Shown in pieces: positions 9,341-53,325 of a stretch of DNA of 64,000 nt. The translations under genes and the position numbers were made by a program. The stretch is taken from NCBI GenBank assembly GCA_044229975.1, contig JBGARZ010000007.1, forward strand, positions 288,001-352,000, read 5' to 3'. The stretch is from Polyangiales bacterium. GTDB lineage: Bacteria > Myxococcota_A > Polyangia > Polyangiales > Ga0077539. The first letter of the stretch is position 1. Each line of letters starts with the position of its first letter. The notes beneath the pieces are model-generated. The model did no database searches, was not told the DNA's origin, and worked only from the letters and a program-made list of their open reading frames with translations.

Positions 9341-9415
9341 GGGGCGGACGGTCTCCCGCCCAACGCGGGTGACGCAAGATCCCTCTCTTCGGCGGTGTAG
9401 AGTCGCCGCCCGAAG

Positions 9416-10279: not shown

Positions 10280-10492
10280 CCCCAATGAGTCGAAGTGCAG
10301 TCGCTCACTCCGGGCTATTTCACGTGGTCACCTCGCTGCGCGAGGTTGCAGGAAGCCTCCGCCGACAATGAACGAGTCGATGGGTTGTTCGTTGAAACCA
10401 GTGCTGCAACCTCGCGCAGCGAGGTGACCACGTGAAATAGCCCGGAGTGAGCGACTGCACTTCGACTCATTGGGGTCACGCAAACTCCGGCC
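10263..10492. repeat. long palindromic REPIN/MITE-like element, copy 2
   Basis: 89-nt inverted arms (10263-10351 and 10404-10492, one mismatch) around a 52-nt spacer; homologous to 1609-1874. Confidence 0.9.
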
Positions 10493-10497
10493 ACAGC

Positions 10498-34203: not shown

Positions 34204-34892
34204 GGGTCACTCCGCGAGCTCGTAAAGTCACGGTAAGCCCTCGCGGCGAAGGCAGCGAGGTGGTCGCGTCGTCGCGTCGCTACAGCCGCGACGGTCTCAT
34301 AGTGCGACTGCGCCTTGGCCACGAACTCCTTCAGGAACGCGCCGAGCGATCGGTCCCACTCGATCTCCGCCACGACCTCTGCGATGCGACGATCAAGGCG
34401 CACCTGACCGGTCCCGAGGTTCTCAATACGCAGGTCAGCGGTTGGCAGGCAGTGGAGGGGCGCGGCGATGATCGAAGAGACCTTGCGGACATCCGTACGA
34501 CCCGAGATCGCCTCGTGGGTCAGTTCGAGCACGATCAGGGTGCCGGTCTTGGTCGCATCCTTCCCAGCGAGGAATCGCAACAGATTTTCGACCGAGCACA
34601 CTCCTCCGTCCGAGTACTTCGCCTCGTCGGCATCGGCCGTCTTGACGTCGACGCCGTAGAAGGTCGATCCCACTCGACACGCCAGATCGTAGAGCGTGCG
34701 CCTCCCCGGTCGCGCCACGGCGACCCAGTTCTCGGCCGCGCAGATCGCCTCCCAGCGATCGACGATGAGCTTCTCGGCCTGACCGCCGAACGCTCGCGAG
34801 TCTTCACGCGCCGGGAGTTGGCCATCGTGCGGAAGGCACCCGCGCGCGACGAGTTGCAGGCGGTCGCAGAACTGCTTGGAGGAGTTGCTCAT
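34200..34892 (-). CDS. putative type II restriction endonuclease (PD-(D/E)xK)
   Basis: R.FG...E helix followed by LYDLAC...GVDVKT catalytic-like motif; stop overlaps the MTase start (GTGA); weaker host codon bias. Confidence 0.65.
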   Translation of the reverse strand: MSNSSKQFCDRLQLVARGCLPHDGQLPAREDSRAFGGQAEKLIVDRWEAICAAENWVAVARPGRRTLYDLACRVGSTFYGVDVKTADADEAKYSDGGVCSVENLLRFLAGKDATKTGTLIVLELTHEAISGRTDVRKVSSIIAAPLHCLPTADLRIENLGTGQVRLDRRIAEVVAEIEWDRSLGAFLKEFVAKAQSHYETVAAVATRRRDHLAAFAARAYRDFTSSRSDP

Positions 34893-37080: not shown

Positions 37081-37635
37081 GTGAGCGCGATGAGCCGAGA
37101 CGACGGTGACGAGGTTCTGGAGGCGCTGGAGGTTCGCGGGACGCTGACCACCGAGACGGGCATCTCGGCGTCCATCACGCGGAGCCACGAGGCCGAGGTG
37201 CTGCGGGTCGTCGACGCCGACGGTCGCCTGCTCTTCGAACACCACACCGGCACCCGCGTCACGGTCATCGTGGCGCCCGAAGGCGACCTCGAACTACGGG
37301 CGCCGCACGGCAAGGTGAAGATCGTCGCGTCGGGCGGGGTCGAGGTCGACACACCCACGCTCGACGCGCGGGTCGGCGAGGCGCGCGTCGAGGGCCGCAC
37401 GCTGAGCACCACCTTCGACCGGGTGCGCTCGGTGGTGGGCGTGCTGGAGACGCGCGCGGGGCGGGTGCTGGAGCGGGCGAAGAGCGTCTACCGCGAGGTG
37501 GAGGGGCTCTCGCAGACGCGCGCCGGTCGGCTACGGCTGGTGGCCGAGACCACGGCGAGTCTGTTGGGGCAGCGCACCGTGGTGAAGGCGAAGGAAGACG
37601 TGAAGGTCAAGGGCGACAAGGTCTACCTGGCCTGA
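37081..37635 (+). CDS. DUF3540-like spike-locus accessory protein
   Basis: C-terminus RVLERAKSVYREVEGLSQTRAGRL...KAKEDVKVKGDKVYLA resembles DUF3540; directly upstream of a DUF4150 gene. Confidence 0.7.
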   Translation: MSAMSRDDGDEVLEALEVRGTLTTETGISASITRSHEAEVLRVVDADGRLLFEHHTGTRVTVIVAPEGDLELRAPHGKVKIVASGGVEVDTPTLDARVGEARVEGRTLSTTFDRVRSVVGVLETRAGRVLERAKSVYREVEGLSQTRAGRLRLVAETTASLLGQRTVVKAKEDVKVKGDKVYLA

Positions 37636-37657
37636 CGGGCGGAAGAGGAGAGAGCGG

Positions 37658-38065
37658 ATGTTTCCAGCGTCGTCCAAGGGTGGTGGTCAGTGCATGGCGT
37701 TTCCGGACGTGTGCAAGGTGCCCGCGCCGCCCGCGCCCTTCGTGCCGGTTCCGTTTCCCAACATCTCGATGGTGATGCAGGCGTCGGGCACGGCCAGCAA
37801 GGTGAAGATCTGCGGCAAGGACGCGGTCACCAAGTCCAGTGACGTCCCGCGGTCGCAGGGTGACGAGGCGGGCACGCTCTTCGGCATGATGAGCCAGGTC
37901 AACATGAACAAGACGACCTACAAAGTGGGCGCGTCCAACGTGAAGTTCCAGGGCGCCGACGCCGTCACGGTGCTCAAGCCCACGGGGCAGAACGGCATGA
38001 GCGCCAACGCCCCCGCCGGCGCGCAGATCGCCCCCAGCCAGACCACCGTCATCATCGTCGGCTGA
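37658..38065 (+). CDS. stand-alone PAAR-like DUF4150 spike-tip protein
   Basis: CMAFPDVCKVP..P..PVPFPNIS, SQGDEAG and QIAPSQTTV motifs; GAGGAG SD. Confidence 0.85.
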   Translation: MFPASSKGGGQCMAFPDVCKVPAPPAPFVPVPFPNISMVMQASGTASKVKICGKDAVTKSSDVPRSQGDEAGTLFGMMSQVNMNKTTYKVGASNVKFQGADAVTVLKPTGQNGMSANAPAGAQIAPSQTTVIIVG

Positions 38066-38105
38066 GCGCCTTCGCGCTCCCTAATCCCACCAGAGCTCAA
38101 TCAAG

Positions 38106-40415
38106 TTGCGGATCATCAAAGAGACTCCCTTCGAGTTCGGCTTCCTCCCGTGGCAGGTCAGGCCCCCGGAGGGGGCGCTGATGGTGTTCGTGAAGGGCAC
38201 CTTCGATCTCGTTCATGACGGCGTCTGCACCGTCGCCGCCGAGCAGTCGCTCATCACTGGTCCGCTCCACTGGGATGACGACCCCAACCAGTCGCTGCGC
38301 CTCGACGGCGACTTCGCCGTGCTCAAGCCGCGCGGCGAGTGCCACTTCGTCGGTCACGCCTACGCCCCCGGCGGAGAGCCCGTCGGCAGCGTGCTCGTCG
38401 GCTTTCGCGTGGGCCAGGTGTCGCGCAACCTCGCCGTCTTCGGCGACCGCACCTTCGACGGCTATGGCGCCGTCACCGCTCCCGTCCCCTTCGAGCGCAT
38501 GCCCATCCGCTGGGAACTGGCGTTTGGCGGTCCGAGCTACGCGCGCAACCCGCTGGGTCGCGGCATCGCGGCCGTCGACACCGAGCAGGGCCGCCGGGTG
38601 GCGCTGCCCAACCTCGAAGACACCTCGGAGCCCATCACCAGCACGAGCGATCGGCCGCGGCCCGCGTGCTTCGGCCCCGTCCCACCGAGCTGGGTCGAGC
38701 GCACCCGCAAGGCGGGGACCTACGACCAGCGCTGGCTGAAGACCCGCTGGCCCTGGCTGCCCGACGACTTCGACTTCTCGTATTACCTGAGCGCTCCGTC
38801 GGCGCAGCACATCGAAGGGTACTGGCGCGGCGACGAGGCCGTCGGGTTGCAGCACCTCGCGGCGTCGCAGACGGTGATCCGATCGAAGCTGCCGGGCCTG
38901 CGCGGGCGCTGCTTCGCGGAGGTGCGGCGGGGCGGGGCGGTGGAGTTCGTGGAGGTTCCGCTGCGGCTCGACACCGTGACGCTCGATGGCGACAAGGAGC
39001 AGGTGCAGTGCGTCTGGCGCGGCCTGCTCGAAGGCATCTCGGAGAAGCACACCGAGGTCGAGACCTTCTTCTTCATCCATGAGTCCATCGATGTCGGGTA
39101 TCCGCTCGACCATTATCGACAATGGATGGAGCGCAAGCGCGCCGAGGCCGTCGCGCTCGACGACGACCTCGAAGCCGAAGCGCCGCCCGCGGAAGAACCC
39201 CTCGCGCTGCCACCGTCACCGCCGACGCCCACCGCGGCGCTGCTGCTCGCGGGTCTCGCGCTGTCCATGGAGGAGAACGGTCCGACGCCAGGGGTCGATG
39301 CGGCCGCCCACGCGGCGCAGGTCGCGCAGGTGAAGGCGCTCGCCGCGGCGCCGCCCGAACCGCCGATGCCGAAGCCTTCCGAGGTGCGTGCGGGCATGGA
39401 CGCGCAGGGCATCGAGGTCCCCGACGAGCTGCGTGAGCTGCCCGACGACGAGCCCGCGGAGCCCGAGACGGAAGAAGAGCCGCCGGGGCTCACGCGTGAA
39501 GACGTGCTGCGGTTTCGTGCGTACGGGCAGCCCCTCGCGGGCGCCGACCTCACCGGGGTCGACCTGTCCGAGCTCGACCTGTCGGGGCAGGACTTCACTG
39601 GCGCCGTGATGAGCCGCGCCGACCTGCGCAACTGCGTGCTGCGCGAGGCGGTGTTCACGGACGTGGTGCTCGACCACGCCGACCTCACGGGGGGTGATTT
39701 CGTGGGCGCCAACTTCGACGGCGCCGACCTCACGGGCGCCGCGGCGGTGCGCGTCAACGCGGAGGGCGCGAGCTTCGAGGGCGCGACGGCCGAGGGCTCG
39801 GCGTGGACGGGGTCGCGGTTCTTCCGGGCGAACCTGAAGGGCGCGGAGTTCGTGGGCTGCACGCTCAACGCGTGCGACTTCCGGGAGAGCACCTGCGACG
39901 AGGCGGACTTCAGCCGCTCGCGCGGAGAGCAGGCGCATTTCGAAGGGGCCTCGCTGGCGTCGGCGACGCTGGAGGCGGGGCAGTTCGCGCGGGCGGTCTT
40001 CGATGATGCGGTGCTGACCAACCTGCGCGCGGACGAGGGCGCGGACTTCACCGAGGCGTCGTTTCGGAGGGTGAAGGCGGCGGACGCGCACTTCGAGCAG
40101 GCGACGCTGCGCGGGGCGCAGATGGGCGAAGGGGACTTCGACAAGGCGGAGTTCGCGCGGGCCAACCTGGAGCGGGCGACGCTCACGGCGGCGTCGCTGA
40201 AGGGCGCGCGGTTCCACGAGGCCAACCTGACGGGCGCGGTGATGCTGAGGGCCAACGCGATGGAGGCGAGCTTCGAGGCGGCGCTGCTGGTGGAGACCGA
40301 CCTGCGCGGGGCCAACCTGACGAGCGCCCAGTTGTGGCGGGCCCGCACCGAGCGCGCGCAGATGGAGCTCGCGCTGCTGCACCGCACCGTCCTCGACCCC
40401 GCCATTCAGGGATGA
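38106..40415 (+). CDS. DUF2169 adaptor fused to pentapeptide repeats
   Basis: VKGTF, DFAVLKPRGE, LAVFGDR, AFGG...NPLGRG, GTYDQRW, LPDDFD and LDTV...VWRG, followed by A(D/N)LxxA pentapeptide repeats. Confidence 0.9.
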   Translation: MRIIKETPFEFGFLPWQVRPPEGALMVFVKGTFDLVHDGVCTVAAEQSLITGPLHWDDDPNQSLRLDGDFAVLKPRGECHFVGHAYAPGGEPVGSVLVGFRVGQVSRNLAVFGDRTFDGYGAVTAPVPFERMPIRWELAFGGPSYARNPLGRGIAAVDTEQGRRVALPNLEDTSEPITSTSDRPRPACFGPVPPSWVERTRKAGTYDQRWLKTRWPWLPDDFDFSYYLSAPSAQHIEGYWRGDEAVGLQHLAASQTVIRSKLPGLRGRCFAEVRRGGAVEFVEVPLRLDTVTLDGDKEQVQCVWRGLLEGISEKHTEVETFFFIHESIDVGYPLDHYRQWMERKRAEAVALDDDLEAEAPPAEEPLALPPSPPTPTAALLLAGLALSMEENGPTPGVDAAAHAAQVAQVKALAAAPPEPPMPKPSEVRAGMDAQGIEVPDELRELPDDEPAEPETEEEPPGLTREDVLRFRAYGQPLAGADLTGVDLSELDLSGQDFTGAVMSRADLRNCVLREAVFTDVVLDHADLTGGDFVGANFDGADLTGAAAVRVNAEGASFEGATAEGSAWTGSRFFRANLKGAEFVGCTLNACDFRESTCDEADFSRSRGEQAHFEGASLASATLEAGQFARAVFDDAVLTNLRADEGADFTEASFRRVKAADAHFEQATLRGAQMGEGDFDKAEFARANLERATLTAASLKGARFHEANLTGAVMLRANAMEASFEAALLVETDLRGANLTSAQLWRARTERAQMELALLHRTVLDPAIQG

Positions 40416-40472
40416 GGGTCTAAGGGTGCGAGCCCCCAGGCGTCTCGTACCATCTCGCCCGCGAGAGCCGCG

Positions 40473-42221
40473 ATGACCGACACCCTCGCGTCCGTCCTCG
40501 AACGCTGCCGCGCCCACCGCGCGGGCCTCACGCGCCACCTCGTGCTCGCGCCCGACAGCCTGCACCGCGTGCTGCGCTGCCTCCGTTGTCAGCAATGGAG
40601 CATCGACACCCGCGTCTACGAGGGCTTCCTCCAGGTCGCCGACGGCGGTCAGCGCCCGTGCTGGAGCCTCGATGAGCTCCGCGCCTTCGTCGAGACCCAG
40701 CACCTCGCGCTGCACACCGTCGACCGCCTCGACCCGTGCCGCTGCGGTGCGCCCGCGGTCAGCCTCTCCCTCGTCGCGGCGCGCTTCCTCCACGCGATGC
40801 CCGGCAGCGGCGCCGAGCTCATAGTAGAAGTGTCCTACGAGCGCGATGAGGTCGTCTCGGTCAGCCTCGGGCGGGCCGTCGTGGGCGGCCCCGTGCTCGG
40901 CATCGACGAGCGCTCCGAGGAGGCGATCCATGGAGCCTTCGGGGTTCCGCTGACGGTGTGGGGTGCGTGGCGGAAGGTGGTGGCCGCCGAGCAGGGCGGG
41001 CTCATCGCGCTCGAAGAGGGACTCGCGCTCGCGGCCTTCCCCGTCGGGGCGGAGGACTTTCGCGCGGAGTTCGACGCGGGCCTCGCGGAGGAGCCCGAGC
41101 TGCGCGCCTACGGGCTCTCCACGCGCGTCACCGCCGACCCCTCCTGGCAGTGGCTCCGCACCAACCCCGACCTCGTCGCGCGGCCCGACACCGTGCTCGT
41201 GATGATGCTTCGCCACGACGTTCTTGCGGCACGCCTCGCCGCGCTCGCCGCCGCGCGCGGGGTCGATGCGCGACGCGATGGCGACACCGTCTGGTTCGAA
41301 GACGCTCCCGTTCGATGGCCCGTCGAGCTGCCCACCGTCGCCGAGGAGGGGCTGCGTCGCGGCTTCACCCTCTCGACCATGGCCGCCGCGGCGACCACCC
41401 ACGCGCTCGATCGATTGGAGACCCTCAAGACCTTCCTCGGGGCCATCGAGAAGCTGCGACCCGGCGTCTCCCTCGCCGTCGACGCGATGACCCTCACCGC
41501 CTCCGTCGATGGCGGCGCCGGTCGACCGATCGACCTCCGCGTCGCTCCCTTCGGACCGATCCCCGACCCCGCCACGCTCGACCGCGACCTGCGCTTCCAC
41601 CTCGACGAGGCGCCCGCCTGGAGCGACCCGTGGCGCGTCTGTCCCTGCGGCGCCGCGCGCTCCGTCGCCCTGCACCGCTGGCGTCGCGACGACCTCCCGA
41701 CGCTCGGACCACAGTCGTCCGATCTCGTGCTCGCGGACGATGACGACGAGGGCACCGTGCGGGTCTTCGCCGTCGCCTGTGATCGCCACGTCGAGTACGC
41801 GCTCGCGCCCCTCGTAGCCGCGCATCCTCGCACCCGCGAGGCACTCACGATGCAGGCCGAGCGCGACCTCGATCGACAGCGCTACGTCCTCAAGGTCGCC
41901 CCCTACGTCGACGCCGCGGGCAGGGTCGCCGCGCTCGTCGAGGGGGAGCACCTCATCGACGCCACGACGCACCCGGCGCTCGTCGCGGGCCTCGCGATGG
42001 CTGCCCTTGGTGGCGACGGTGCGGCCGTCATCACCACGCTCTCCCGCGAGCTCGCGGTGGTGGCCGCCGATGGGGTCGACGCCGAGCTCGTCGCGCGACT
42101 GGAGGAGGTCGGTCGGGTGCTCTGGACCCTCCAGCGAGGAACCTCCCCGACGCCCCTTCGCGTGACCTTCGCGACCGCGGCGGGAGCGGCGCGGGCGGGG
42201 GTCTTCGCGCGGGCGACGTGA
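40473..42221 (+). CDS. hypothetical protein with Cys clusters
   Basis: 582-aa ORF with host-like codon bias and motifs CLRC, CRCG and CPCG; lies inside the spike operon. Confidence 0.7.
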   Translation: MTDTLASVLERCRAHRAGLTRHLVLAPDSLHRVLRCLRCQQWSIDTRVYEGFLQVADGGQRPCWSLDELRAFVETQHLALHTVDRLDPCRCGAPAVSLSLVAARFLHAMPGSGAELIVEVSYERDEVVSVSLGRAVVGGPVLGIDERSEEAIHGAFGVPLTVWGAWRKVVAAEQGGLIALEEGLALAAFPVGAEDFRAEFDAGLAEEPELRAYGLSTRVTADPSWQWLRTNPDLVARPDTVLVMMLRHDVLAARLAALAAARGVDARRDGDTVWFEDAPVRWPVELPTVAEEGLRRGFTLSTMAAAATTHALDRLETLKTFLGAIEKLRPGVSLAVDAMTLTASVDGGAGRPIDLRVAPFGPIPDPATLDRDLRFHLDEAPAWSDPWRVCPCGAARSVALHRWRRDDLPTLGPQSSDLVLADDDDEGTVRVFAVACDRHVEYALAPLVAAHPRTREALTMQAERDLDRQRYVLKVAPYVDAAGRVAALVEGEHLIDATTHPALVAGLAMAALGGDGAAVITTLSRELAVVAADGVDAELVARLEEVGRVLWTLQRGTSPTPLRVTFATAAGAARAGVFARAT

Positions 42222-42283
42222 GCGCGGCGGGAGTGTGATACATCGGTAGGACAGCGCCGCGAGAGGCGCGCGCGGAGGTGGCG

Positions 42284-43450
42284 ATGACGGCGCAGCTCTT
42301 GTCGGTCGAGGTTCCGTTCAGCAGTACTGCCCTCAAGCTGGGGTCGTCGGTGGGCGGTCCCGGGGCGAGCCTCCAGACGGCGGGTGACGTGCTCCTCGAC
42401 TGCGTCGGGGTGATGGACATCCAATCGGCGGCCGCGTTTGTCGGGCAGACCAGCGCCGCGATGTCGATGCTGTCGGCGGCGATCCAGAAGATCCACTCGC
42501 AGGCGAAGGTCGAGCTCTTCGCGGGCGGTGGCATCTCGCCGAGCGCGTGCGGCCCGTCGGGCCCCGTGTCGGCGCCCGACCATGGTCCTCCGGGTGCTGC
42601 CTCGGAGAAGGTGACCGGCCTGGCGACGGCGGCGCTCTCGGCGACCAGCGCGAGCTACGGGTTGAAGGACGCGTTTTCGCCCAACCTCGCCATCGAAGCG
42701 GCGGGGAAGGGCGCCAAGGTCATCGCCGTCGCGGTTGGTGGTATCGCGGCGGTTGGTGGTGTGAGCGCGATCGGCAACGCGGCCTCCGGGTCGGGCTCCG
42801 GCGGAGCGGCGGCACCCGCAGGGGCGGGGGCAGGTGCAGGGGCGGGCGGAGCGAGCAGCTCGGGCGAAGGCGGATCGCACGGAGCGAGCAGCGGCAGTGG
42901 CGGGGGCGGCGGCGGTGGGACGCACATCGAGGAGCGCGCGTCGGCCAACATCAAGATGGTCGCGGGGAAGAAGATCTCGGGCATCGCTCCGGCCATGATC
43001 AGCTCGAAGACCCTGGGGAAGTTCGAGGTGAAGGCGCTGCTGGTGACCGACTTCACCACGGTGCTGTTCACCAACTTCGCGCTGGCGAAGTTCGAGGTGA
43101 AGGCGCTCGATGCCTTCAAGACGGTGTCGGGGAAATTCGAGGTCGAGGCCGACGTCGCGGTGGACATCAAGACCAAGGACTTCAAGGGCAAGGCCCCGGC
43201 CGTCACGATGGACGGCCACACCAAGGTCACGAAGGTGACCGACGTGAAGGGCAAGACGACGCTGAAGGACGACCTGGAGGTCGAGCGCAACGCCCTCATG
43301 AAGGACAAGCTCACCGTGAAGAAGAAGGTCGAGGTGAAGGGCACCCTCACGGTGAAGAAGAACACCAAGGTCACCTCGACGGCCACCATCGACGGCGACG
43401 TGAAGACCAAGACCGTGACCTTCAAGTCGCGAGTGACCTTCGGGCTCTAA
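42284..43450 (+). CDS. VgrG C-terminal spike-like protein, paralog A
   Basis: GGAGG SD; SVEVPFSSTALKLG, FAGGGISP and IEERA..IKMVAG; K/V/T-rich alternating beta-strand repeats at the C-terminus. Confidence 0.7.
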   Translation: MTAQLLSVEVPFSSTALKLGSSVGGPGASLQTAGDVLLDCVGVMDIQSAAAFVGQTSAAMSMLSAAIQKIHSQAKVELFAGGGISPSACGPSGPVSAPDHGPPGAASEKVTGLATAALSATSASYGLKDAFSPNLAIEAAGKGAKVIAVAVGGIAAVGGVSAIGNAASGSGSGGAAAPAGAGAGAGAGGASSSGEGGSHGASSGSGGGGGGGTHIEERASANIKMVAGKKISGIAPAMISSKTLGKFEVKALLVTDFTTVLFTNFALAKFEVKALDAFKTVSGKFEVEADVAVDIKTKDFKGKAPAVTMDGHTKVTKVTDVKGKTTLKDDLEVERNALMKDKLTVKKKVEVKGTLTVKKNTKVTSTATIDGDVKTKTVTFKSRVTFGL

Positions 43451-43474
43451 GGGCCACCACCAGAGGGAGAGCCG

Positions 43475-44617
43475 ATGACCACGCCGCAGACCTTTGCTGT
43501 CACTGTTCCGCACGCGTCGAGCCAGCTCGCGCTGGGGCGCTGCGCCTGCCCCGACGGGGCCTCGCTCACCACCGTCGGGAGCGTGCTCGCCGACGCCGCC
43601 GGAACGCTCACCGCGCAGTGCGACGGGGCGTTTCTGGCGCAGACCAACGCGGCCATGTCGTGGCTCTCGACGGCCGGGACGCAGGTTCACACGGCCGCGG
43701 GGATCACCGTCTACGCGGGCGGCGGCGTGGCGCCGGGCGCGGCCGGGGGAGGGGTTCCGGCGAGCTCGCCGGGGTCGTCGAAGCCAGGGGCGGTGACCGA
43801 GAAGGTGGTCAACCTCACGCTCATCGGGGCCAACCTCGCGCGCAACGCCGTCGACGCGGCGGGCGCGGAGTCGGCGGTCGGGGTCGCGGCGCAGGTCCTC
43901 GACGCGGCGAAGAACGTGACCGCGGCCACCGCGGAGGTCGGCGCTGGGGGGGCGAAGCTCTCGGCGGCGACGGAGATGACGGGCGGCGCTCTCACCCTGG
44001 CGGAGGGCATGGCGAAGGGTGACCTCGCGGGCGTGGTCGTAGGGGCCGCGGGCATGGCGAGCGGCGCGTCGGGCGTGGCGAGCGGGTCGGACATCGAGCA
44101 GCGCGCGGTCAACGAGATCAAGATGGTGGCGGGCACCATGATCACGGGCTCGGCGACCGTGGGCTACGACTACAAGACGCTCAACAAGTTCGGCGTGACG
44201 GCGGGGGCGCTCACGAGCTTCACGACGACGGTGTGGGGAGCGTTCTGTCTGTTGAAATTCGAGGTGAAGGCCGGGGCCGCGGTGAAGGTGAAGACCAAGC
44301 TGGTGACGGTCAACGCGACGGTGTCGGCGACCATGGACGCGAAGACCGCGCTGAAGGTGATCAGCCCGAAGATCGAGTACGTGAGCAAGCTCGAGGTGAG
44401 CAAGACGCTGAAGGTCGTGAAGAAGACCAAGGTCAACAGCCTCGAAGTGAAGAAGAAGTCCGACCTCGACGGCACCCTCACGGTCGACAAGAACATGACC
44501 ATCGAGATGAACCTCGCGGTGAAGAAGAACCTCGACGCCAAGAAGGACGCCAAGGTGACGAAGGCCACCACGGCGAAGGGCGCGGCCACGGTGAGCGGCA
44601 AGACGAAGGTCGCCTGA
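43475..44617 (+). CDS. VgrG C-terminal spike-like protein, paralog B
   Basis: AVTVPHASSQLALG, YAGGGVAP and IEQRA..IKMVAG; K/V-rich beta repeats. Confidence 0.7.
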   Translation: MTTPQTFAVTVPHASSQLALGRCACPDGASLTTVGSVLADAAGTLTAQCDGAFLAQTNAAMSWLSTAGTQVHTAAGITVYAGGGVAPGAAGGGVPASSPGSSKPGAVTEKVVNLTLIGANLARNAVDAAGAESAVGVAAQVLDAAKNVTAATAEVGAGGAKLSAATEMTGGALTLAEGMAKGDLAGVVVGAAGMASGASGVASGSDIEQRAVNEIKMVAGTMITGSATVGYDYKTLNKFGVTAGALTSFTTTVWGAFCLLKFEVKAGAAVKVKTKLVTVNATVSATMDAKTALKVISPKIEYVSKLEVSKTLKVVKKTKVNSLEVKKKSDLDGTLTVDKNMTIEMNLAVKKNLDAKKDAKVTKATTAKGAATVSGKTKVA

Positions 44618-44630
44618 GGGAGCCCCTGCG

Positions 44631-46199
44631 ATGCCCAACAACAACATCACGGGTGAGCTCAACAACACCGACCCGGTCTGCCTGCCCGGGGTGGACAACC
44701 AGGGCGCGACGGTCGAGTCGGACAGTGATCTCAGCGACGGGATGATGTGCGCGACCGGGTACGTGGACGTCGCGAAGTTTCCCGCGACCGCGCCCGGCAT
44801 CGATGAGCAGAAGAAGGCCGCCAACGCGCGGGCGGCGAAGTCTCCGAAGGGCGACGACGCGACGGCGCAGACGTACCGGGCAGAGGTTCCGTTTTCGGGG
44901 ACGGCGTTGCAGCTCGGGTCGGGCAGCTCGGCGGGCGGCGCGGGCGCGGCGCTCACCACCGGCGGCAACGTCTTCGTTGGCGCGACGGGCAAGATCACCA
45001 TGCAGTCGCTCGCGGCCTTCACGGGTCAGACGACGGCGACGATGGGGCTCTACGCGGGGGCCGGGGTGACGGCGCACTCGCAGGACAAGTTCGAGATCTA
45101 CGCGGGCGGCGGCGTGGCGCCGGGCAAGTGCGGGAGCGGCGGTCCGGCGGGGAGCGCGGGGACGACCAAGCCCGCCGAGGCGGCCGAGAAGTGGACCAAC
45201 GTCGGCTGCAACGCCCTCGGCGTGGTGAAGGGCCTCAACGACATGAGGAACGCCAACACCTGGTGGAAGGGCACCGCGTCGGACAAGGTGACGATGCTCA
45301 AGGGCGCCACGGACGCGTTGGGCAAGGGCACGCAGGCGGTCATGGGCGGCATCGGCACCGACAAGGACACGTTGAAGACCACGTCGAAGGTGGCCGACAC
45401 GACGTCGGGCGTGCTCAACGTGATCGGCGGCCTCACGAAGCTCAAGGAAGACCCCGTGGGGGCCGCGTCGAGCATCGTGTCCGGCATCGGCGGCGTCTCG
45501 GGCGCTTTCGGCGGGTCGCAGTTGATGAACTCCGACGGTCCCGTCGCGGGTAGCGATGGCGCGACGGACAGCGTCCCCGGCAACAAGGAGAAGAAGGCCA
45601 AGGCGAAGGCCGCGGGCGGCGGCGGCGGCGGTGGCGCTGGCGGCGGTGGTGGGCCGTTGGACATCGAGAAGCGCGCGGCGACGAAGATCCACCAGTGCTG
45701 CCCCTTGAAGATCTCGGGCAACGCCCCGGAGGGCATCGACTGGAAGGTGGGCGGCGCCTACCTGGTCAACGCCGTCGCGCTGGTGGACTTCCAGACGACC
45801 AACTGGGGTGCGTTTGCGGCGGCGATCTTCAAGGTGCGCGCGGTGGCGCTGGTCGACGTGAAGTGCCGACGCTTCGAGATGAAGGCGGTGGGCACTGGCA
45901 CCGTGAAGACCGTGTCGACGACCATCACGGCGTCGACGCTGAGCCTGCTCGACGGGGTGACGGACGTGACCGAGACGCTCACGGTGCTCAAGCACACGAC
46001 GCTGCACGACGAGCTGCACTGCGACAACGGCGGCAAGGCGAGCCTCGTGAAGGGCAACCTCACGGTGAAGAAGGACACCACCCACCAGGACGACGCCAAG
46101 ATCTACAAGACGTTCACGGTGAAGGACAGCATCACGATCAACGGTCGGTACGTGTCCAAGAGTCAGTTGAAGGCGGCCAGCGAGGGCAAGTTCGGCTGA
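44631..46199 (+). CDS. VgrG C-terminal spike-like protein, paralog C (N-terminal extension)
   Basis: DDATAQTYRAEVPFSGTALQLG, YAGGGVAP and IEKRA; K/V/T-rich beta repeats. Confidence 0.7.
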   Translation: MPNNNITGELNNTDPVCLPGVDNQGATVESDSDLSDGMMCATGYVDVAKFPATAPGIDEQKKAANARAAKSPKGDDATAQTYRAEVPFSGTALQLGSGSSAGGAGAALTTGGNVFVGATGKITMQSLAAFTGQTTATMGLYAGAGVTAHSQDKFEIYAGGGVAPGKCGSGGPAGSAGTTKPAEAAEKWTNVGCNALGVVKGLNDMRNANTWWKGTASDKVTMLKGATDALGKGTQAVMGGIGTDKDTLKTTSKVADTTSGVLNVIGGLTKLKEDPVGAASSIVSGIGGVSGAFGGSQLMNSDGPVAGSDGATDSVPGNKEKKAKAKAAGGGGGGGAGGGGGPLDIEKRAATKIHQCCPLKISGNAPEGIDWKVGGAYLVNAVALVDFQTTNWGAFAAAIFKVRAVALVDVKCRRFEMKAVGTGTVKTVSTTITASTLSLLDGVTDVTETLTVLKHTTLHDELHCDNGGKASLVKGNLTVKKDTTHQDDAKIYKTFTVKDSITINGRYVSKSQLKAASEGKFG

Positions 46200-46220
46200 C
46201 GCCCGACGACTGCAATTCCG

Positions 46221-48146
46221 ATGAGCGACATCACCACCGTCGAGGCCCTGGAGGCCGCCCTCGCGACCGGATCTCTCTCGGGCGCGCGCGTCCGCAATCT
46301 CACCGTGGAAGACCTCTCCTTCGAGGGCGTGACGCTCACCGCGGTGGCCTTCCTCGGGTGCGTCTTTCGGCGGCTGTCGCTGTCGCAGTCGTCGCTGACG
46401 GCGGTGGCCTTCCACGGCTGCCAGTGGGACGACTGCGCGTGGACGGAGCTCAGCGTCACGGGCGCCCTCTTCGCGGCGGGCGAGGGGGGCGAGGCGTCGT
46501 ACTTCGTGGGCACGCGCTTCGAGAGCTGGAGCGGCGAGAAGCTGACCTTCGAGACGTGCAGCTTCGAGGGTTCGACGCTGGCCGAGGCGGGGCTCAGCGA
46601 GGTGCGCTTCGCGGGCTGCGCGCTGCGCGACGTGGTGTGGCGCGAGGTGTCGCTGTCGGAGTTCTCGCTGGAGGCCGTGACCGTCGAGCGGGGGCAGTGG
46701 CTGGAGACGCGGCTCGAAGGCGGCGAGCTGGTGCGCTGCGAGCTGCACGCGCTCAGCGCGCCGGGTCTGGGCATCGAGGACACACGCTTCGATCACGTCG
46801 AGTGGGCGGGCGCCGACCTGACGGGCGCGAGGCTCGCGGGGCTCTCGTTTGCGGGCGTGGTGTCGATGCCCGCGACGCTTGACGGGGCGGTGCTCACGAG
46901 CGCCGACCTCACGGGCTGCGACCTGACGGGTGTCGCTCTCCGCGGGGCTGATCTGTCGGAGGCGGTGCTGGCGCGCGCGGTCTTCGACACGGCCGACCTG
47001 ACGGGCGCCGACCTCACGAGCGCGATGGCGGCGGGCGCGTCGTTCCAGGCGGCGATCGTTCGAGGGGCGAACTTCTCCAGCGCGGTGCTCCAGGGCGTCG
47101 ACCTGCGGGCGCGCGACGCGGAGTCGGTGGTGTTCTCGGGGGCCGACCTGCGGGCGAGCGACGTGCGCTACGCCGAGTTCAACGGGTGCCTCTTCGACGG
47201 GTCGCTGTGGGCCGAGGCGCGCACCGGGCGGGCGTCGTTTCGAGGGTGCAGCTTCGAGGGTGCGACGCTGGAGGGCGCCGTCTTCGACGGGTGCGCGCTG
47301 ACGGACTCGTCGCTCGCCGCGGCGCGCGCGGCCGGGGCGTCGTTGCGCGGGTGCGACCTGAGCGAGGTCGACGCGAGCGGAGCGCAGCTCGCGGGTGCGT
47401 TGCTCGCGGGTGCGCGATTGCATGACGCGGTGCTGACGGACGCCGACCTCACGGGGGCCGACCTCACGGGGGCGCAGCTCTATCGCAGCGACCTCGCGGG
47501 GGCGCGGCTCGCGGGCGCGGTGCTCCTGGGCGCCGACCTCACGCGGGTGGACGCGCGCGGGCTGCACCTGGGCGACTGTCGCATCGACCGCGCGACGGTG
47601 TGGGAGGGGGCCGACCTGCGGGGCGCGGCGGCGGTGGGGATGGACTTCCGCGGCGCCAACCTGCGCGACCTCGACGGGCGCGGCGGTGACTTCACCGGGT
47701 GCCGCTTCGACGAGGCGGTGGCGGAGGGCGCGACGCTGCACGAAGCGAAGCTCACGGGCTCGTCGTGGGTGAAGACGAAGGCGCGCGGGGCGGAGTTCGA
47801 CGGGGCCAACCTCGACGCGAGCGACCTGCGCGGGGCCGACCTGCGCGCGGCGACGATGGTGGGCGCGAGCGCGCTGCGGGCGCTGTTCACGAAGGCCGAC
47901 CTCGACCGCGCGCGGCTGGTGAAGTGCGACCTGCGCGAGGCCAACCTGGCGCTGTGCACGATGCGGTACTGCGACCTCTCGCACGCGAAGCTCGACCGGG
48001 CGGACTGCACCCACGCCGACCTCACGGGGTCGCTGCTGCATCGCACGACGGAGCTGGAGACGAAGTGGTTCGACGCGACGCTGGACGAGGTCGGGCGCAC
48101 CGACCCGAAGCTCGCCGCGGGCGAGGACTTCGTCCCGACGCGGTAG
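46221..48146 (+). CDS. long pentapeptide-repeat protein
   Basis: Almost the whole 641 aa consists of ADLTG/A.F.. pentapeptide repeats. Confidence 0.92.
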   Translation: MSDITTVEALEAALATGSLSGARVRNLTVEDLSFEGVTLTAVAFLGCVFRRLSLSQSSLTAVAFHGCQWDDCAWTELSVTGALFAAGEGGEASYFVGTRFESWSGEKLTFETCSFEGSTLAEAGLSEVRFAGCALRDVVWREVSLSEFSLEAVTVERGQWLETRLEGGELVRCELHALSAPGLGIEDTRFDHVEWAGADLTGARLAGLSFAGVVSMPATLDGAVLTSADLTGCDLTGVALRGADLSEAVLARAVFDTADLTGADLTSAMAAGASFQAAIVRGANFSSAVLQGVDLRARDAESVVFSGADLRASDVRYAEFNGCLFDGSLWAEARTGRASFRGCSFEGATLEGAVFDGCALTDSSLAAARAAGASLRGCDLSEVDASGAQLAGALLAGARLHDAVLTDADLTGADLTGAQLYRSDLAGARLAGAVLLGADLTRVDARGLHLGDCRIDRATVWEGADLRGAAAVGMDFRGANLRDLDGRGGDFTGCRFDEAVAEGATLHEAKLTGSSWVKTKARGAEFDGANLDASDLRGADLRAATMVGASALRALFTKADLDRARLVKCDLREANLALCTMRYCDLSHAKLDRADCTHADLTGSLLHRTTELETKWFDATLDEVGRTDPKLAAGEDFVPTR

Positions 48147-48167
48147 GCGGTCGAGCGGCCGGCGCGC

Positions 48168-49208
48168 TCAGCTCAACGTCGCGCCCGCGCGGTACGTCGA
48201 CGGCGACCGGCCGGTCCAGCGGCGGAACGCTCGCGTGAAGGCGGTCGACTGACCAAACCCGAGGTCGTGGGAGATCTGCTTCAGCGAGCGCGTGCGGTCG
48301 CCGATCCAGAGCAGCGCGAGCTCACGTCGCGCCTCATCCAACAGGTCCTGAAACGACGTCCCCGCGTCGCCCAGCGCGCGCTGGAGCGATCGCACGCTGA
48401 GGGCCATCCCAGAGGCGACGCTCGTCACCGACGGCGACGCGCCCTCCTTGAGCACCCGCTTGAGCTCGGCGCGCACGCGCTCTTCGATCTGGGGCCGCGA
48501 CGCGACCCGCTCCTTCCGGTCGACGAGATGGGCCTCCATCAGGTTGGCGAGCGCGGGGTTGGCGCTGCGCAACGGAGCGGTGAGGTACGACTCGTCGAAG
48601 GTCACGCAGTCCTCCGCGGCGGAGAACGACGGCACCGTGCCCAGCACGCGCGCGTGCTCCGCGAGGTCCGCCGGGGCCGAGTGGCGGAAGCACACACTCC
48701 GCGCAACAAACGGCCGATCGATGAGCGTCCGCGCCCGCAGAAACCAGACCGCGACCGCGAACTCGCAGAAGTGACGCGGCACCCGCGACGTCGAGTGAAA
48801 CACCACCCACACCCGCGCCTCGCCCTGCTCCACCGCCAGCCGGATCTCCGCGCCGTCGTGTTGGAGCCGCAGGTGACGCATCATGCGCTCCAGCCCGTCG
48901 CGCATCGTCGGCGCGCTCGTCACCGCGAAGTCGTACGCGTCGAACATGGCGTCCTGCATCGCCTCGGCGGCGTGCAGTCCGAAGTGCGGGTCCCCCAGGT
49001 GTTCGGCGACGCGGTCCCACGCGCGATAGGTGAGCTCCGCCGATACGCGCGCCTCGGGGTCGGCCAGCGTCTCCAGGTCGACCCCGATCAGCGCCGCGGC
49101 CTCGGTGAGTTCGAGGCCCGCGTTGGCGGCCACCAGGACGCAGCCACGCAAGGCGTTGACGCAGACGTTGGGCGCGTACGGGGTCGAGCGGGTCGAGGGG
49201 TTGGACAT
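48168..49208 (-). CDS. AraC family transcriptional regulator
   Basis: LADPEARVS and GDPHFGL N-terminal domain; SVRSLQRAL and LGFGQSTAFTRAFRRWTGRSPS HTH. Confidence 0.92.
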   Translation of the reverse strand: MSNPSTRSTPYAPNVCVNALRGCVLVAANAGLELTEAAALIGVDLETLADPEARVSAELTYRAWDRVAEHLGDPHFGLHAAEAMQDAMFDAYDFAVTSAPTMRDGLERMMRHLRLQHDGAEIRLAVEQGEARVWVVFHSTSRVPRHFCEFAVAVWFLRARTLIDRPFVARSVCFRHSAPADLAEHARVLGTVPSFSAAEDCVTFDESYLTAPLRSANPALANLMEAHLVDRKERVASRPQIEERVRAELKRVLKEGASPSVTSVASGMALSVRSLQRALGDAGTSFQDLLDEARRELALLWIGDRTRSLKQISHDLGFGQSTAFTRAFRRWTGRSPSTYRAGATLS

Positions 49209-49403
49209 CGTCGGTAGCCTCGCGAGGTGCGGTGCCTCTGGCGCGTGGGGGTAGGTCGTGGGCGCCCCAGGGTAACGCCATCTCAGCGATGGCGCGGTAG
49301 CTGTGTCCGCCAGTCCTGGGACGGGCACTTCCCCTGCGTGATGGGCCAGGCGGGGGTGAGACGCCGCGTCGCAAACACGGAACAACCGACAAGGAGATCC
49401 CGC

Positions 49404-51719
49404 ATGACCAGCGTCTTGCAACACGGCTCGACAAGCGCCAACCCGCCTTCCGTCTTCATTCGACTTCTGGCGATTGCCTCAATGATCACGGCCGCCGCTG
49501 GGTGCAGTGACCCGGTGAGCGTCACCCCGACCGATGCAGGCACCGACGTCCCCGTCGCTCCGACCGACGCGCCCGTCGCCGATGCGCCCACCGACCAACC
49601 GCCTCCTGCCGACGCGCCATCCGCTGATGCGCCCATCTCTCCATTGAACTGTGGCGGTGTCGAGGTGCTCGACCTCAACGCGCTGGGCACCACGACCGAC
49701 GGCGTCCTCCGTTACACGGGCATGTCGCCCATGATGCAGGCGGCCGCAATGGTCCCGATGTGCACGGCGATGTTCAACGTCCCGCGCATCCTCCGGTACA
49801 CGGCGCCCGCCGCCGGTCGCGTGGCCTTCAGCACCGACAACATGGGGACCACCTTCGACACCACCCTGGCCGTGCTCACCGGCTGCCCGGGGCCGACGGC
49901 CACCTCCCTCGGGTGCGTCGACGACAACGGCGTCACCACGCGCCTCTCGTCCATCGTCCGTACCGAGCGTGCCCTCACCGCAGGCGAGAGCGTCTACGTC
50001 CTCGTCGGCGCCTTCGCCACGGGAGGCACCTTCGCCCTCTCCGTCACCGCGGTCAGTGAGGTCGCCGTCGGCGCGGCCTGCGACACCGATCGGGTGTGCG
50101 TGACCGGTGCGACCTGCATCACGCCCGCGGGCTCCACCGCCCGCTGCGTCGCCAACGGAACCTCCGGTGGCGCCTGCCGACCCGCGAGCGCCGGTGGCAC
50201 CCGCTGCGACGCGCCCCTGTCGTGCTCGGCCGCCGAGCGCTGCATCCCCACCATCGCCGCGGGCGCCGAGTGCGACGCCGCGGGCGCCGCCAACGTCTGC
50301 GTCGCCGGCACCTCGTGTCAGACCGCCGGCACCGCCCGCACCTGCGTGGCAGACGGCGCGCTCAACGGCCGCTGCCGCGCGACCGACAGCTCTTGCGACG
50401 CGGGCCTCGGGTGCGCGCGCGCCAGCAACCTCTGCCTCCCCGTGGTCGCGATCGGAGCCGCGTGCGACCTCGCGAGCAGCACCTCGGTCTGCATCACCGG
50501 ATCGTCGTGCCAGGGCTCGCCGGGTCTCTACCGCTGCGTGGCGGACGGCGTGCTGGGCGGGCAGTGCCGCGCGTCCATGGGCTGCGACACCGGCCTCGGT
50601 TGCAACGCCACCAACTACTGCGTCACGGGCATCGCCGCGGGTGCCACCTGCGACCCCTCGTCGTCCTCGTCGGTGTGCGTCTCCGGGAGCATCTGCGTGG
50701 GCTCGCCTGGCATGTATCGCTGCCAGCCTGACGGCGCCGTCGGTGGCCGCTGCCGCGCGGCGGTGCCCCGATGCGACACGGGCCTCGGCTGCGGAGCCGA
50801 CCGCTGCCTCCCGACCGTGGCCGCGGGCGCGGCGTGTGATCCGGCCCGCATGGCCAACGTGTGCGCCGACACGACGAGCTGCATCGCCGCGACGAGCGGC
50901 GCTGCGACCTGCGTGGCCGACGGCATCGCGGGCGGTCGTTGCCGCACGACGGCGATGCCCTGCGACACGGGCCTCGGCTGCGGCGCCGGCCAGCGCTGCA
51001 TCACGGCGGTCGCCATCGGCGCGACCTGCGACGCGACGGGTGTGACCAACGCCTGCGTGAGCCCGGCGCGATGCGTGGTGATGGGAACGTCCAAGGCGCG
51101 CACCTGCCAGCTCCCGAGCTACGTCGAGAGCGAGATCGCGTCGCCGACCTTCGTCGATGCGTGCACCGCGGACGCCACGCGCGTCACGTTCACGTCAATG
51201 GATGACGCCATCTCTGCGATGGTTCCGATCGGCTTCACGCTGCGCGCGTACGGCGCCGACTACACCGCGATGCTGGTCTCCACCAACGGGATGGTGGTGC
51301 TCGGCGATGCGGCGCTGCCGATGCCGCCGCCCTTCAGCACCGGGGGCGATCTCTTCCCCTGGGTCGGGGCACCGCGGCCGGTGTTCGCGCCCTTCTGGGA
51401 CGACCTCGTGCTCCGCACCGCTGGGAGCGTCTGCGTGCGCACCCTGGGCGCGGCGCCGTCGCGAACGACGGTGGTCGAGTGGTTCGACGCATCCCTCTAC
51501 CTCGGTGAGACGGCGCACCTGACCTTCGAGCTCGTCCTGCGCGAGGGCTCCAACCAGGTCGACTTCCTCTACCAGACGCTCACCCCTGGGATGGCGCCCG
51601 CCGCCCGACTGGAGGGCGGCTCCGCGGGCATCGGCGTGCAGGGCGCCATGGGCCTCGACGCCACCCGCCACGCGGCCGCCGTGAGCACCGCCCGCGGCAT
51701 CCGCTTCGCTCCGCGCTGA
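49404..51719 (+). CDS. Cys-rich repeat lipoprotein with C-terminal nidogen-like beta domain
   Basis: AAGGAG SD; lipobox AAGC; FDTTLAV (PPC-like); repeated C.ADG..GGRCR....CD.GLGC; C-terminal VSTNG...FAPFWDDL. Confidence 0.8.
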   Translation: MTSVLQHGSTSANPPSVFIRLLAIASMITAAAGCSDPVSVTPTDAGTDVPVAPTDAPVADAPTDQPPPADAPSADAPISPLNCGGVEVLDLNALGTTTDGVLRYTGMSPMMQAAAMVPMCTAMFNVPRILRYTAPAAGRVAFSTDNMGTTFDTTLAVLTGCPGPTATSLGCVDDNGVTTRLSSIVRTERALTAGESVYVLVGAFATGGTFALSVTAVSEVAVGAACDTDRVCVTGATCITPAGSTARCVANGTSGGACRPASAGGTRCDAPLSCSAAERCIPTIAAGAECDAAGAANVCVAGTSCQTAGTARTCVADGALNGRCRATDSSCDAGLGCARASNLCLPVVAIGAACDLASSTSVCITGSSCQGSPGLYRCVADGVLGGQCRASMGCDTGLGCNATNYCVTGIAAGATCDPSSSSSVCVSGSICVGSPGMYRCQPDGAVGGRCRAAVPRCDTGLGCGADRCLPTVAAGAACDPARMANVCADTTSCIAATSGAATCVADGIAGGRCRTTAMPCDTGLGCGAGQRCITAVAIGATCDATGVTNACVSPARCVVMGTSKARTCQLPSYVESEIASPTFVDACTADATRVTFTSMDDAISAMVPIGFTLRAYGADYTAMLVSTNGMVVLGDAALPMPPPFSTGGDLFPWVGAPRPVFAPFWDDLVLRTAGSVCVRTLGAAPSRTTVVEWFDASLYLGETAHLTFELVLREGSNQVDFLYQTLTPGMAPAARLEGGSAGIGVQGAMGLDATRHAAAVSTARGIRFAPR

Positions 51720-51736
51720 CACCCCCCCCACCGGCC

Positions 51737-51767
51737 AAACGCCGCGGGCTGCGACAGCTCCGCGGCG
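51737..51767 (-). terminator. terminator-like hairpin directly after the vgrG stop
   Basis: Stem CGCCGCGG/CCGCGGCG followed by TTT on the minus strand; lies between convergent genes. Confidence 0.55.
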
Positions 51768-51768
51768 G

Positions 51769-53241
51769 TCAGCTCTGGTCGTCGAAGGTCACGGTGATGC
51801 CGTGGCGCGTGCGGATCTGGCTCTGCGTGGGGTTGCCCGAGTTGACCGGCGAGGCCGTCTCGAAGTTGGGCACCGACGACATGATGAGCGGTCGGTCGGG
51901 GTCGCCGTTGACGTGGATGAGCGCGACCTCGGTGCCGATGTGCAGCGGAAACTGCACGCCGTAGCCGCTGCCCGAGGCGGGCTGCGCCATGCGAATCCAG
52001 CGCGACGCCTTGCCGCCGGCCTTGCCCGCGAGGTCCCACGGGAGGATGACCTTGTAGCGGCCGTGCTCGTCGACGGGCGTCGCGCGCACGCCATCATCGG
52101 GCGCGTCGATCTTGCCGTGGATCACGCCCGCGATGCGGGGCACCGGTGTCATCCGCACCGGGCGCCACGGCACCGCGGTGGGGACGGCGGTGAACTCGTT
52201 GCGGTACGCCTGCGAGCCGCCGCTCGTGCCGATGCCCGCCTGCTGCACCGAGTGGCGGATGTCGGTGACGAAGTACTCCTGCTCCATCGCGTCGAAGTAG
52301 TGCTGCTCGACGCTGAACTTGTGCCCCGGGTGCAGGCCCCGCAGCGCCGTGACGCCCGCGTAGGTCTCGCGGTGGGCGAACAGCTCCTGCGAGCGCAGCT
52401 TGGCGATGCGCGTGCCGCCCGCGTGATCCTTGAAGTGCTCGCCGTAGTAGACGTGCTCGCCGGTGCCGGTGGTGTCGACGTCCTCCTTGGCGACGAGCTC
52501 GGTGGACGGCGTGCGGTAGTTGTAGTCGCGCACCGTGACCTTCGTGGTGACCGTGCGACGCGTTCGCGAGAGGGCCGTGATGCGCTGCTCGCCGCCCGCC
52601 GTGCCGCCGCGCGGGTCGTAGGTGAGCACCTCGTAGCCGTCGAGGTTCTGGAAGTTGTTGTTGCCGTCCGCGAAGACCAGCTTCGACCCTTCGTCGCCGT
52701 GCTCGAAGAAGTAGAAGATCCCTTCGTACTCCATCACCCGCGACAGAAACTGGAAGTCCGTCTCCTCGTACTGGACCTTGTATTCGTAGGGCTTGTACGT
52801 CTTCGAGAGCCGCAGCTCGAAGTCGTCGCCGTCGGCAAAACCAGCCTCCGTCAGCACGTCCTTGATGACCTGCGGGGCTGAGAGTTCTTGATAGACCCAC
52901 GAGCCCGCGGTGAGGGTCGTGTCGAAGAACTTCGGCACCAGGCGCAGGTGGTAGAGCACGGGTGACGGCTCGTTCATCGAGAGCATCTCGACCTCGCGGA
53001 TGACCCCGTGGATCTTGTTCTCCTCCTGGTCGCCGAAGGCGATGTACGCGCTCTTCACGAGCAGCTCTTCGACCGTGGCGAAGGACAGCGGCGTGCCGGT
53101 GGAGGTCTCCACGATGAGGTCGAACGCGTAGAGCTGCGAGAGCCCCTCGTGTCCGTCCATCTGCCGAACGTAGAGGTCCGGCGCCGACTCCGCCGTGGTG
53201 CGAAACACGACCGTGTAGTTCGAGTGGTCCTGGTCAGGCAT
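51769..53241 (-). CDS. vgrG: VgrG (TssI), gp27-like + gp5 OB-fold only; no C-terminal spike
   Basis: GHEGLSQLYAF, QYEETDFQFLSRVMEYEGIFYFFEH, RDYNYRTP, YRNEF, DEHGRYKV, FPLHIGTEV and GDPDRP; ends IRTRHGITVTFDDQS*. Confidence 0.92.
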   Translation of the reverse strand: MPDQDHSNYTVVFRTTAESAPDLYVRQMDGHEGLSQLYAFDLIVETSTGTPLSFATVEELLVKSAYIAFGDQEENKIHGVIREVEMLSMNEPSPVLYHLRLVPKFFDTTLTAGSWVYQELSAPQVIKDVLTEAGFADGDDFELRLSKTYKPYEYKVQYEETDFQFLSRVMEYEGIFYFFEHGDEGSKLVFADGNNNFQNLDGYEVLTYDPRGGTAGGEQRITALSRTRRTVTTKVTVRDYNYRTPSTELVAKEDVDTTGTGEHVYYGEHFKDHAGGTRIAKLRSQELFAHRETYAGVTALRGLHPGHKFSVEQHYFDAMEQEYFVTDIRHSVQQAGIGTSGGSQAYRNEFTAVPTAVPWRPVRMTPVPRIAGVIHGKIDAPDDGVRATPVDEHGRYKVILPWDLAGKAGGKASRWIRMAQPASGSGYGVQFPLHIGTEVALIHVNGDPDRPLIMSSVPNFETASPVNSGNPTQSQIRTRHGITVTFDDQS

Positions 53242-53325
53242 GACGAGCACGTTACCAAAATCGGTGGTGGGTGGGTGAGGTCATCCCCCCGCCGCGAGCC
53301 TGCGATAGAGTCGTCGCCCAACCCG

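Follow-up and report, generated by a model that had tools for sequence, protein, structure and literature searches.

A needle-less VgrG hub and three separate needle genes in a myxobacterial Class III Tvp locus: a putative two-piece type VI secretion spike

Introduction

How can a VgrG protein that ends directly behind its OB-fold form a spike, and what are the three related proteins encoded on the opposite strand of the same locus? The question arises from a stretch of 64,000 nucleotides of a Polyangiales genome (hereafter the window, G000:C33:288001-352000, G000 being the host genome), which harbors a type VI secretion system (T6SS) vgrG gene and three tandem paralogs, A, B and C (Table 1). 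An earlier note on this DNA had read the vgrG as a hub separated from its needle and the paralogs as needle chains. Comparison with related genomes indicates that this split spike is real, conserved and widespread in the window's order, with a partial precedent in Francisella. Its gene content marks the locus as a Class III Tvp cluster, an orphan client locus of T6SSi. The arrangement favored here, with a probability of roughly 60%, is a hub trimer to which three needle chains from separate genes would be joined non-covalently, most likely one A, one B and one C.

The hub and its conserved end

The vgrG gene starts with an ATG at 53241 (an alternative GTG lies at 53250), and its product ends in TQSQIRTRHGITVTFDDQS, followed by TGA (...GITVTFDDQS-TGA). 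Pfam assigns residues 31-334 to Phage_GPD (PF05954, E 1.6e-71) and 393-456 to the Phage_base_V OB-fold (PF04717, 33.3 bits against a cut-off of 23.8); TIGR03361 is matched over residues 17-479 of 513 (338.9 bits, cut-off 186), and TIGR01646 is matched as well. The claim that the protein stops right after the OB-fold is borne out by these Pfam and NCBIfam matches: the gp27-like hub and the OB-fold are present and the beta-prism needle is missing from the chain, the stop lying 45 residues past the start of the GDPDRP motif. Full-length relatives extend about 280-770 aa beyond this point. When aligned on GDPDRP, short hubs stop at (E/D)D, where full-length myxobacterial VgrGs run on with Q-x-I-x-I-S-T-P...T-x-L-x-LG.

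The position of the stop is shared by relatives. The last 123 residues of the hub were searched in 301 genomes of the window's order and the best 30 per-genome loci were compared; in 30/30 of these best matches (54-100% identity) the stop falls within one residue of the window's end, and the stop codon varies among TGA, TAA and TAG. Among 12 related loci recovered with the needle alignment, vgrG is visible in seven, all with the same end motif. A search of related genomes for a short vgrG together with a needle triplet recovers the same pattern in several lineages. In the window itself, hub and needles face each other across an insertion and nothing needle-like follows the stop; because the needles lie on the other strand, read-through or frameshifting is excluded here. 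The terminator-like hairpin reported behind vgrG did not hold up: it is a GC stem without a U-tract, lies outside the eight sites of a terminator scan and does not surpass shuffled sequences in folding (z -0.44; 57/200 shuffles as good).

The host genome contains 15 vgrG matches, 13 of full length and two short. The second short vgrG, on contig C20 (L001 7526-12524), encodes 554 aa ending in ...TNDDA and belongs to another Class III Tvp cluster. A needle gene of 1106 aa follows 13 nt behind it, with the same motif as the window paralogs and a long Ala/Gly-rich helical middle, and this type of pair occurs in three further genomes. Fused and split spike forms thus coexist in the host genome.

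The needle chains and their relation to fused VgrGs

Each paralog has its own ATG with a GGAG-like site upstream, the intergenic gaps are 24 and 13 nt, and with A both B and C share 38% identity. The motifs described for the three tandem genes (Q..VP..L.LG, then GA(S/A)L.T.G.V, and K/V/T-rich ends) were all found. A, B and C form separate orthogroups, with Shimodaira-Hasegawa-like approximate likelihood ratio (SH-aLRT) supports of 97 (A), 99 (B) and 97 (C), and the gene order is fixed across genera. Across 24 orthologues the C-domains measure 175-182 aa and the middles 67-210 aa; in A, a hydrophobic stretch occupies residues 146-164 of the middle.

The needle chains very probably represent the C-terminal half of VgrG. 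Aligned with hhalign to the tails of 112 full-length VgrGs, the N-domain profile of the window family gives P 66% (E 5.7e-5, score 30.9), where the best of 40 column shuffles scores 13.7 and the reversed profile 13.0. With 11 fused tails closer to the hub the match rises to P 94% (E 9.4e-8, score 42.9; best shuffle 14.2), and a broader N-domain profile gives P 88%. Both alignments made with the window-family profile begin in the first residues past the junction, and the profile covers the first 50 residues there. The N-domain is thus homologous to the segment just past the DD motif of fused VgrGs. A PDB profile search with the N-domain has VgrG 6SJL as its top match (E 2.4e-4), with the motif over KTQLNLG..GEGAELRTD, presumably the segment named T6SS_Vgr, and 7/16 matches at E<=10 are spikes of VgrG, gp5 or contractile injection systems. 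Several fused VgrGs have their parts in the order beta segment, long variable insert and beta tip, as in the needle genes, which fits the view that the needle genes are whole C-terminal halves of VgrG. The family is also well delimited in the genome: a needle hidden Markov model (HMM), iterated on separate genes of the fetched loci only, finds four strong matches among 59,130 stop-to-stop open reading frames (ORFs), namely A, B, C and the 1106-aa gene on C20 (E ~1e-24), and the next match stands at 0.3.

The AlphaFold2 model of the N-domain (predicted local distance difference test, pLDDT, 85.5) is a three-strand sheet followed by an unpaired extended chain, a shape expected for an intertwined oligomer. 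Among its top Foldseek ranks, spikes and triple beta-helix proteins predominate, which at non-significant scores is a lead only. The same holds for Atlas clusters with a T6SS_Vgr/DUF2345/Gp5_C-type match, at scores of 0.83-0.84 only; for needle A itself, and for the 496-aa neighbor of the hub, ESM Atlas scores stay below 0.9. The full-length monomer model reaches pLDDT 48, without a significant Foldseek match.

An hmmsearch with sub-profiles of the window family yields nothing significant at the junction, neither for the 15 VgrGs encoded in the genome nor for the C20 needle. With alignment A2, 7,981 candidates (915-2610 aa) were searched for fused homologues and gave none, which is weak evidence, as the route through the hub later found some. 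A PDB profile search from the three paralogs alone returns Gly-linker noise only, PHROGs gives weak baseplate-hub matches only (8 and 6 of 75 members, the best at E 0.003), a phage collection weak OB-fold matches only, and a PF06841 search is uninformative, with no match anywhere and its controls likewise silent.

Needle chains vary in size from about 320 to 1300 aa, with middles of about 1000 aa in other lineages. Very long needle genes (~1050-1300 aa, with long middles) occur at L092, L095, L096, L097, L102, L129, L130 and L166 and are candidates for effector-bearing needles. Some chains carry N-terminal extras, such as the 76 aa of C or the Ig-like ASH/Cep192 domains of the L041 needle gene (8775-10775). 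The first genes of other triplets have upstream frames similar in length to that of L041. Frameshifts are seen in Tvp or needle genes of L006, L039 and L135, possibly as assembly errors.

Linkage and copy number

A separate needle gene is found at 40/50 short-vgrG loci and at 0/21 full-length loci, although the 50 were picked from the match list by a short frame or a high score and the count of 40 is partly circular, the HMM having been trained on those loci; the 21 controls and the genome background lie outside the training. Most of the full-length control loci carry Tvp genes, and in 9/21 VgrG itself contains the needle domain, at most a few residues from the junction. The needle gene sits directly behind the short vgrG in many lineages. 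The counts leave out L042-L051 (the same loci as L004-L014), DUF3540 ORFs matched by the needle HMM, the frameshifted L039, and L152, which was chosen as a control and proved short, with a separate needle gene.

Relatives with related loci are Myxococcota (Polyangiales, Myxococcales, Myxococcaceae, Deltaproteobacteria). In a phylum-wide sample with 15 candidates scored per genome, the needle domain is present in at least 5/301 genomes, all of the window's order. On an unrooted tree of 92 hubs made by a quick method (one duplicate hub dropped, and one long-branch row labeled full having a 56-residue tail only), the short or full label needs four changes, of which at least three are forced by starred branches. 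This suggests that fission or fusion happened more than once; fused and split forms would have interconverted at least three times.

Needle genes come in ones or threes. The 52 complete needle arrays, each flanked on either side by 1.8 kb of sequence or more, comprise 38 single and 14 triple ones and no other number. Of 12 edge arrays five are resolved, as two single, two triple and one double, giving 40 single, 16 triple, one double and none larger overall. The triples fall into about four groups: the window type, L041/L112/L135/L167, L106/L115 and L113/L120. On a tree that is short and weakly resolved (with L113 and L120 outside it), window-type domains group with relatives present in single copy, and for this reason the window-type triplication looks independent of the others. 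One-or-three is the pattern expected of a trimer to which each gene supplies one chain, which is circumstantial evidence for such a trimer. Full-length vgrG is present once in 17 of the 21 control loci and three times in tandem in four. Tandem triplets of full-length vgrG stand in Tvp loci at G000:C32 (L003 10565-17596), L148, L150 and L155.

Assembly of the spike and its alternatives

In the T6SS, a homotrimeric VgrG hub seeds the Hcp tube, and the hub of the window would do so as usual. The first needle strand (Q-x-x-x-V-x-VP) may pair with the free last strand of the hub chain at the DD edge, and the beta-prism would be continued non-covalently. The variable middle (67-210 aa in the window type) would loop out as a cargo or membrane-active part, and the fixed-length C-domains (175-182 aa) would intertwine into the tip. 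TvpAB and TvpB may place the DUF4150 PAAR protein on this C-domain tip, swapping out TvpC, by analogy with the Serratia system as its authors describe it (PMC13373197). With the split, the needle N-terminus would be free to bear extra domains, a position closed to them in a fused VgrG. It is likely that the needles dock on the window hub and, given docking, reasonably probable that the heterotrimer is obligate or preferred. A wider reading is favored only slightly: a two-piece myxobacterial spike in which the constant hub serves as a socket and repeated triplication has led to programmed A/B/C needles, each chain with its own looped-out middle and N-terminal cargo domain, that is, a natural plug-in tip system.

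Beyond the limits on the linkage count, several results weigh against an A/B/C needle on this hub. Foldseek finds no match at E<=0.001 for the full-length or the N-domain model, and Pfam T6SS_Vgr (PF13296), DUF2345 (PF10106) and Gp5_C have no match on A, B or C. The K/V/T repeats of the C-domain align with VgrG tips at P 34% on 30 columns (hhalign), or P 1.4% with the 112-VgrG set. This repeat resembles many long repeat proteins, and a 50%-representative search is swamped by K/V repeats. The C-domain of A is also weakly bactofilin-like over residues 319-386 (PF04519, E 5e-4, 20.7 bits against a cut-off of 27.9); B and C have no match to this family. On the genetic side, paralog C of L011 (12481-13896) is broken by a TAG, and L166 is a true double with near-identical N-domains. 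The triples make up only about four lineages and the members of each are kin, so that triples are not independent cases. Single-needle systems must form homotrimers, and homotrimers are thus structurally possible. Finally, 10/50 short hubs are without a needle gene in the fetched region, and in G153, G097 and G072, three of the genomes with such loci, hub and triplet are on different contigs. Hub and needle genes need not adjoin.

Alternatively, a single hub could accept A3, B3 or C3 homotrimers interchangeably as its needle, with a different middle delivered by each. The 40 loci that work with a single needle gene are compatible with this, as is the faster divergence of the A and B middles (~51% identity to L007, vs 71-79% for the beta parts), and an apparent need for VgrG heterotrimers in Aeromonas is reported to stem from effector load and not from heterotrimerization itself (PMC8668125). 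Under free interchange, however, arrays of two, four or five genes are expected, and apart from the one double beside 16 triples none of these is seen. The fixed order of A, B and C across genera, their matched C-domain lengths and the lack of small immunity-like genes in the gaps of 24 and 13 nt between them likewise make interchange unlikely, and the copy numbers favor the A/B/C heterotrimer over it. A different possibility is that the paralogs descend from VgrG tails and no longer dock, acting as TvpC-like helpers or separate cargo, with the short VgrG completed by TvpC or left blunt. TvpC is itself described as a VgrG mimic of the pre-complex, with an OB-fold plus a beta-prism (PMC13373197), and both the hubs without a nearby needle gene and the triplets on separate contigs would be accommodated. 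Loss of docking is nonetheless improbable, given that hub end and needle start are complementary within a few residues, that no full-length locus has a needle gene although most carry Tvp genes, and that the needle gene directly follows the short vgrG in many lineages.

Were A, B and C to have nothing to do with the spike and to be beta-helix proteins of a bactofilin-like cytoskeletal or an adhesin type, the weak bactofilin match on A, the name CcmA that the Joint Genome Institute (JGI) gives to some homologues and the similarity of the repeat to many long proteins would follow. That match lies below its cut-off and is confined to residues 319-386, and homology of the N-domain and the pattern of linkage both speak for VgrG, which leaves this explanation very improbable. 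A recent lesion or an assembly error behind the stop, with vgrG a pseudogene, would agree with the 13/15 vgrG matches of the genome that are full length. It is refuted by the conserved end in the 30/30 best per-genome matches, according to which vgrG ends at this point in 29 further genomes, with identities as low as 54% and with TGA, TAA or TAG as the stop; in addition, nothing needle-like lies past the stop in the window, the needles being on the other strand. The short end is thus no recent lesion, and an A/B/C needle borne by a constant hub is retained as the most probable arrangement.

Comparison with known spikes

Separate chains for hub and spike are known from phages. In phage T4, gp5 is moreover cleaved behind the lysozyme domain and retains its beta-helix non-covalently. 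The pairs gp27 + gp5 of T4 and gpD + gpV of P2 resemble the window in having hub and spike on separate chains; the phage break is placed before the OB-fold, whereas here it lies after it (PMC5924787). A partial precedent is the T6SSii of Francisella, for which a 164-aa VgrG without gp27 and OB-fold is described, with PdpA as cap and a proposed break after the OB-fold (PMC5924787). Hub and needle are two proteins in both cases, with the proposed Francisella break likewise behind the OB-fold. In contrast to the window, the T6SS of Francisella is of a divergent subtype, its PdpA has 95 kDa and, as described there, it has one bare needle; the window has a canonical TssI hub (TIGR03361) and needles with looped-in middles and N-terminal extras, one or three in number. 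The Pfam and NCBIfam scans of the window hub list no match to a PdpA family, and the comparison is one of how the parts work.

Shortened or divided vgrG genes have been noted elsewhere. Some Acinetobacter strains have separate genes for the N- and C-terminal parts of VgrG, likened to the phage gp27/gp5 split, a two-gene arrangement for which the main text gives no break point, conservation or function (PMC6838775), and a truncated vgrG receives a mention for Neisseria (PMC10210955). VgrG heterotrimers of paralogous spike chains have been proposed for Vibrio cholerae and Aeromonas dhakensis (PMC8668125). These would mix whole VgrG chains, whereas here only the needles would mix, on a homotrimeric hub. 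Full-text searches, with most subscription papers and supplements outside their scope, returned no description of a conserved split behind the OB-fold in Myxococcota or of needle triplets.

The gene set of the window is that of the Class III VgrG1-Paar1 system of Serratia marcescens, reported with TvpAB, TvpB and TvpC and corresponding to synteny type C of Sachar et al. (PMC13373197, PMC11883445). It is complete here: TvpAB (DUF2169 with C-terminal pentapeptides), an independent TvpB, a DUF3540-type TvpC and a stand-alone DUF4150 PAAR protein. Serratia VgrG1 is a single chain with a long beta-prism, whereas here the prism is in separate genes, and the main text of the Serratia study makes no mention of a split, truncated or heterotrimeric form (PMC13373197). 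In the two-step assembly described there, the VgrG tip replaces TvpC (PMC13373197); the present locus would extend the Class III Tvp model, in that the tip replacing TvpC would be a separate protein.

Apparently, canonical T6SS spikes, in which OB-fold and needle are as a rule covalently joined, can lose this connection at a single precise residue. The split would explain many short vgrG genes of Myxococcota that would otherwise be taken for pseudogenes, and it assigns a large unannotated family, the needle chains, to the spike. Because the needle chains could be varied here independently of the hub, the one-or-three pattern gives a clean genetic handle on a long-discussed issue, whether spike heterotrimers are structurally programmed.

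Gene layout and genomic context

The plus-strand run from tvpC to tvpB has gaps of 13-62 nt, and vgrG is convergent with this needle operon (Table 1). The neighbors named by the earlier note (DUF3540, DUF4150, DUF2169 with pentapeptides and the stand-alone pentapeptide gene) all score above their Pfam cut-offs, and its statement that the window lacks hcp, sheath and baseplate genes was upheld by tblastn with the genome's own 10 T6SS core and Hcp proteins, which gave zero window matches.

Table 1. Genes of the split-spike locus in the window
Feature	Coordinates	Strand	Basis
DUF3540 protein, TvpC	37081..37635	+	Pfam E 7.5e-18; role as described in PMC13373197
Stand-alone DUF4150 PAAR-like tip protein (Tox-PAAR-like), 135 aa	37658..38065	+	PF13665 E 9.7e-30
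DUF2169 + pentapeptide repeats, TvpAB, PAAR chaperone	38106..40415	+	Pfam E 1.1e-90; role as described in PMC13373197
Conserved protein without family, 582 aa	40473..42221	+	No Pfam match above cut-off, no PDB match; in related loci
Putative needle chain A, 388 aa: beta N-domain 1-80, Gly/Ala-rich middle 81-212, beta C-domain from 213	42284..43450	+	
Putative needle chain B, 380 aa, three-part build as in A	43475..44617	+	
Putative needle chain C, 522 aa, N-terminal extension of ~76 aa, longer middle	44631..46199	+	
Stand-alone pentapeptide-repeat protein, TvpB	46221..48146	+	Pfam E 2.4e-72
araC regulator	48168-49424	-	Pfam scan
Cys-rich repeat gene, 830 aa	49227-51719	+	
Needle-less VgrG hub, 490 aa: gp27-like domain, OB-fold and first beta-prism strands, end at DD motif	51769..53241	-	Pfam, NCBIfam
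Protein without family, 496 aa, divergent from vgrG	53326..54816	+	No Pfam or PDB match

The araC and 830-aa genes are missing between tvpB and vgrG in four close relatives (L005, L006, L007, L010) and, by this comparison, are a lineage-specific insertion outside the system. The 582-aa protein accompanies window-type loci with one or three needles and has another copy on C38. The 496-aa protein accompanies the hub, being divergent from it in L005, L006, L007, L010 and L014 and directly downstream in L036, L037 and L073; this conserved hub neighbor is a candidate cargo or partner.

The T6SS core is encoded elsewhere in the genome. Contig C39 (110353-122592) carries TssE, J, K, L, M, TagF, A, B and C with a Clp-type ATPase, TssF is on C11 (116483-118237), and three hcp genes are on C28, C36 and C10; a phage-type sheath (PF04984) was not found in the genome. 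The core is thus scattered; C11 also has a second tssM-like gene and C19 a distant sheath-like one. Matches in sequencing runs include no RNA run, and their shares are 0.14 or less throughout. In the window, two overlapping minus-strand ORFs at 32683-34892 resemble, as judged by eye, a DNA methyltransferase and a small endonuclease.

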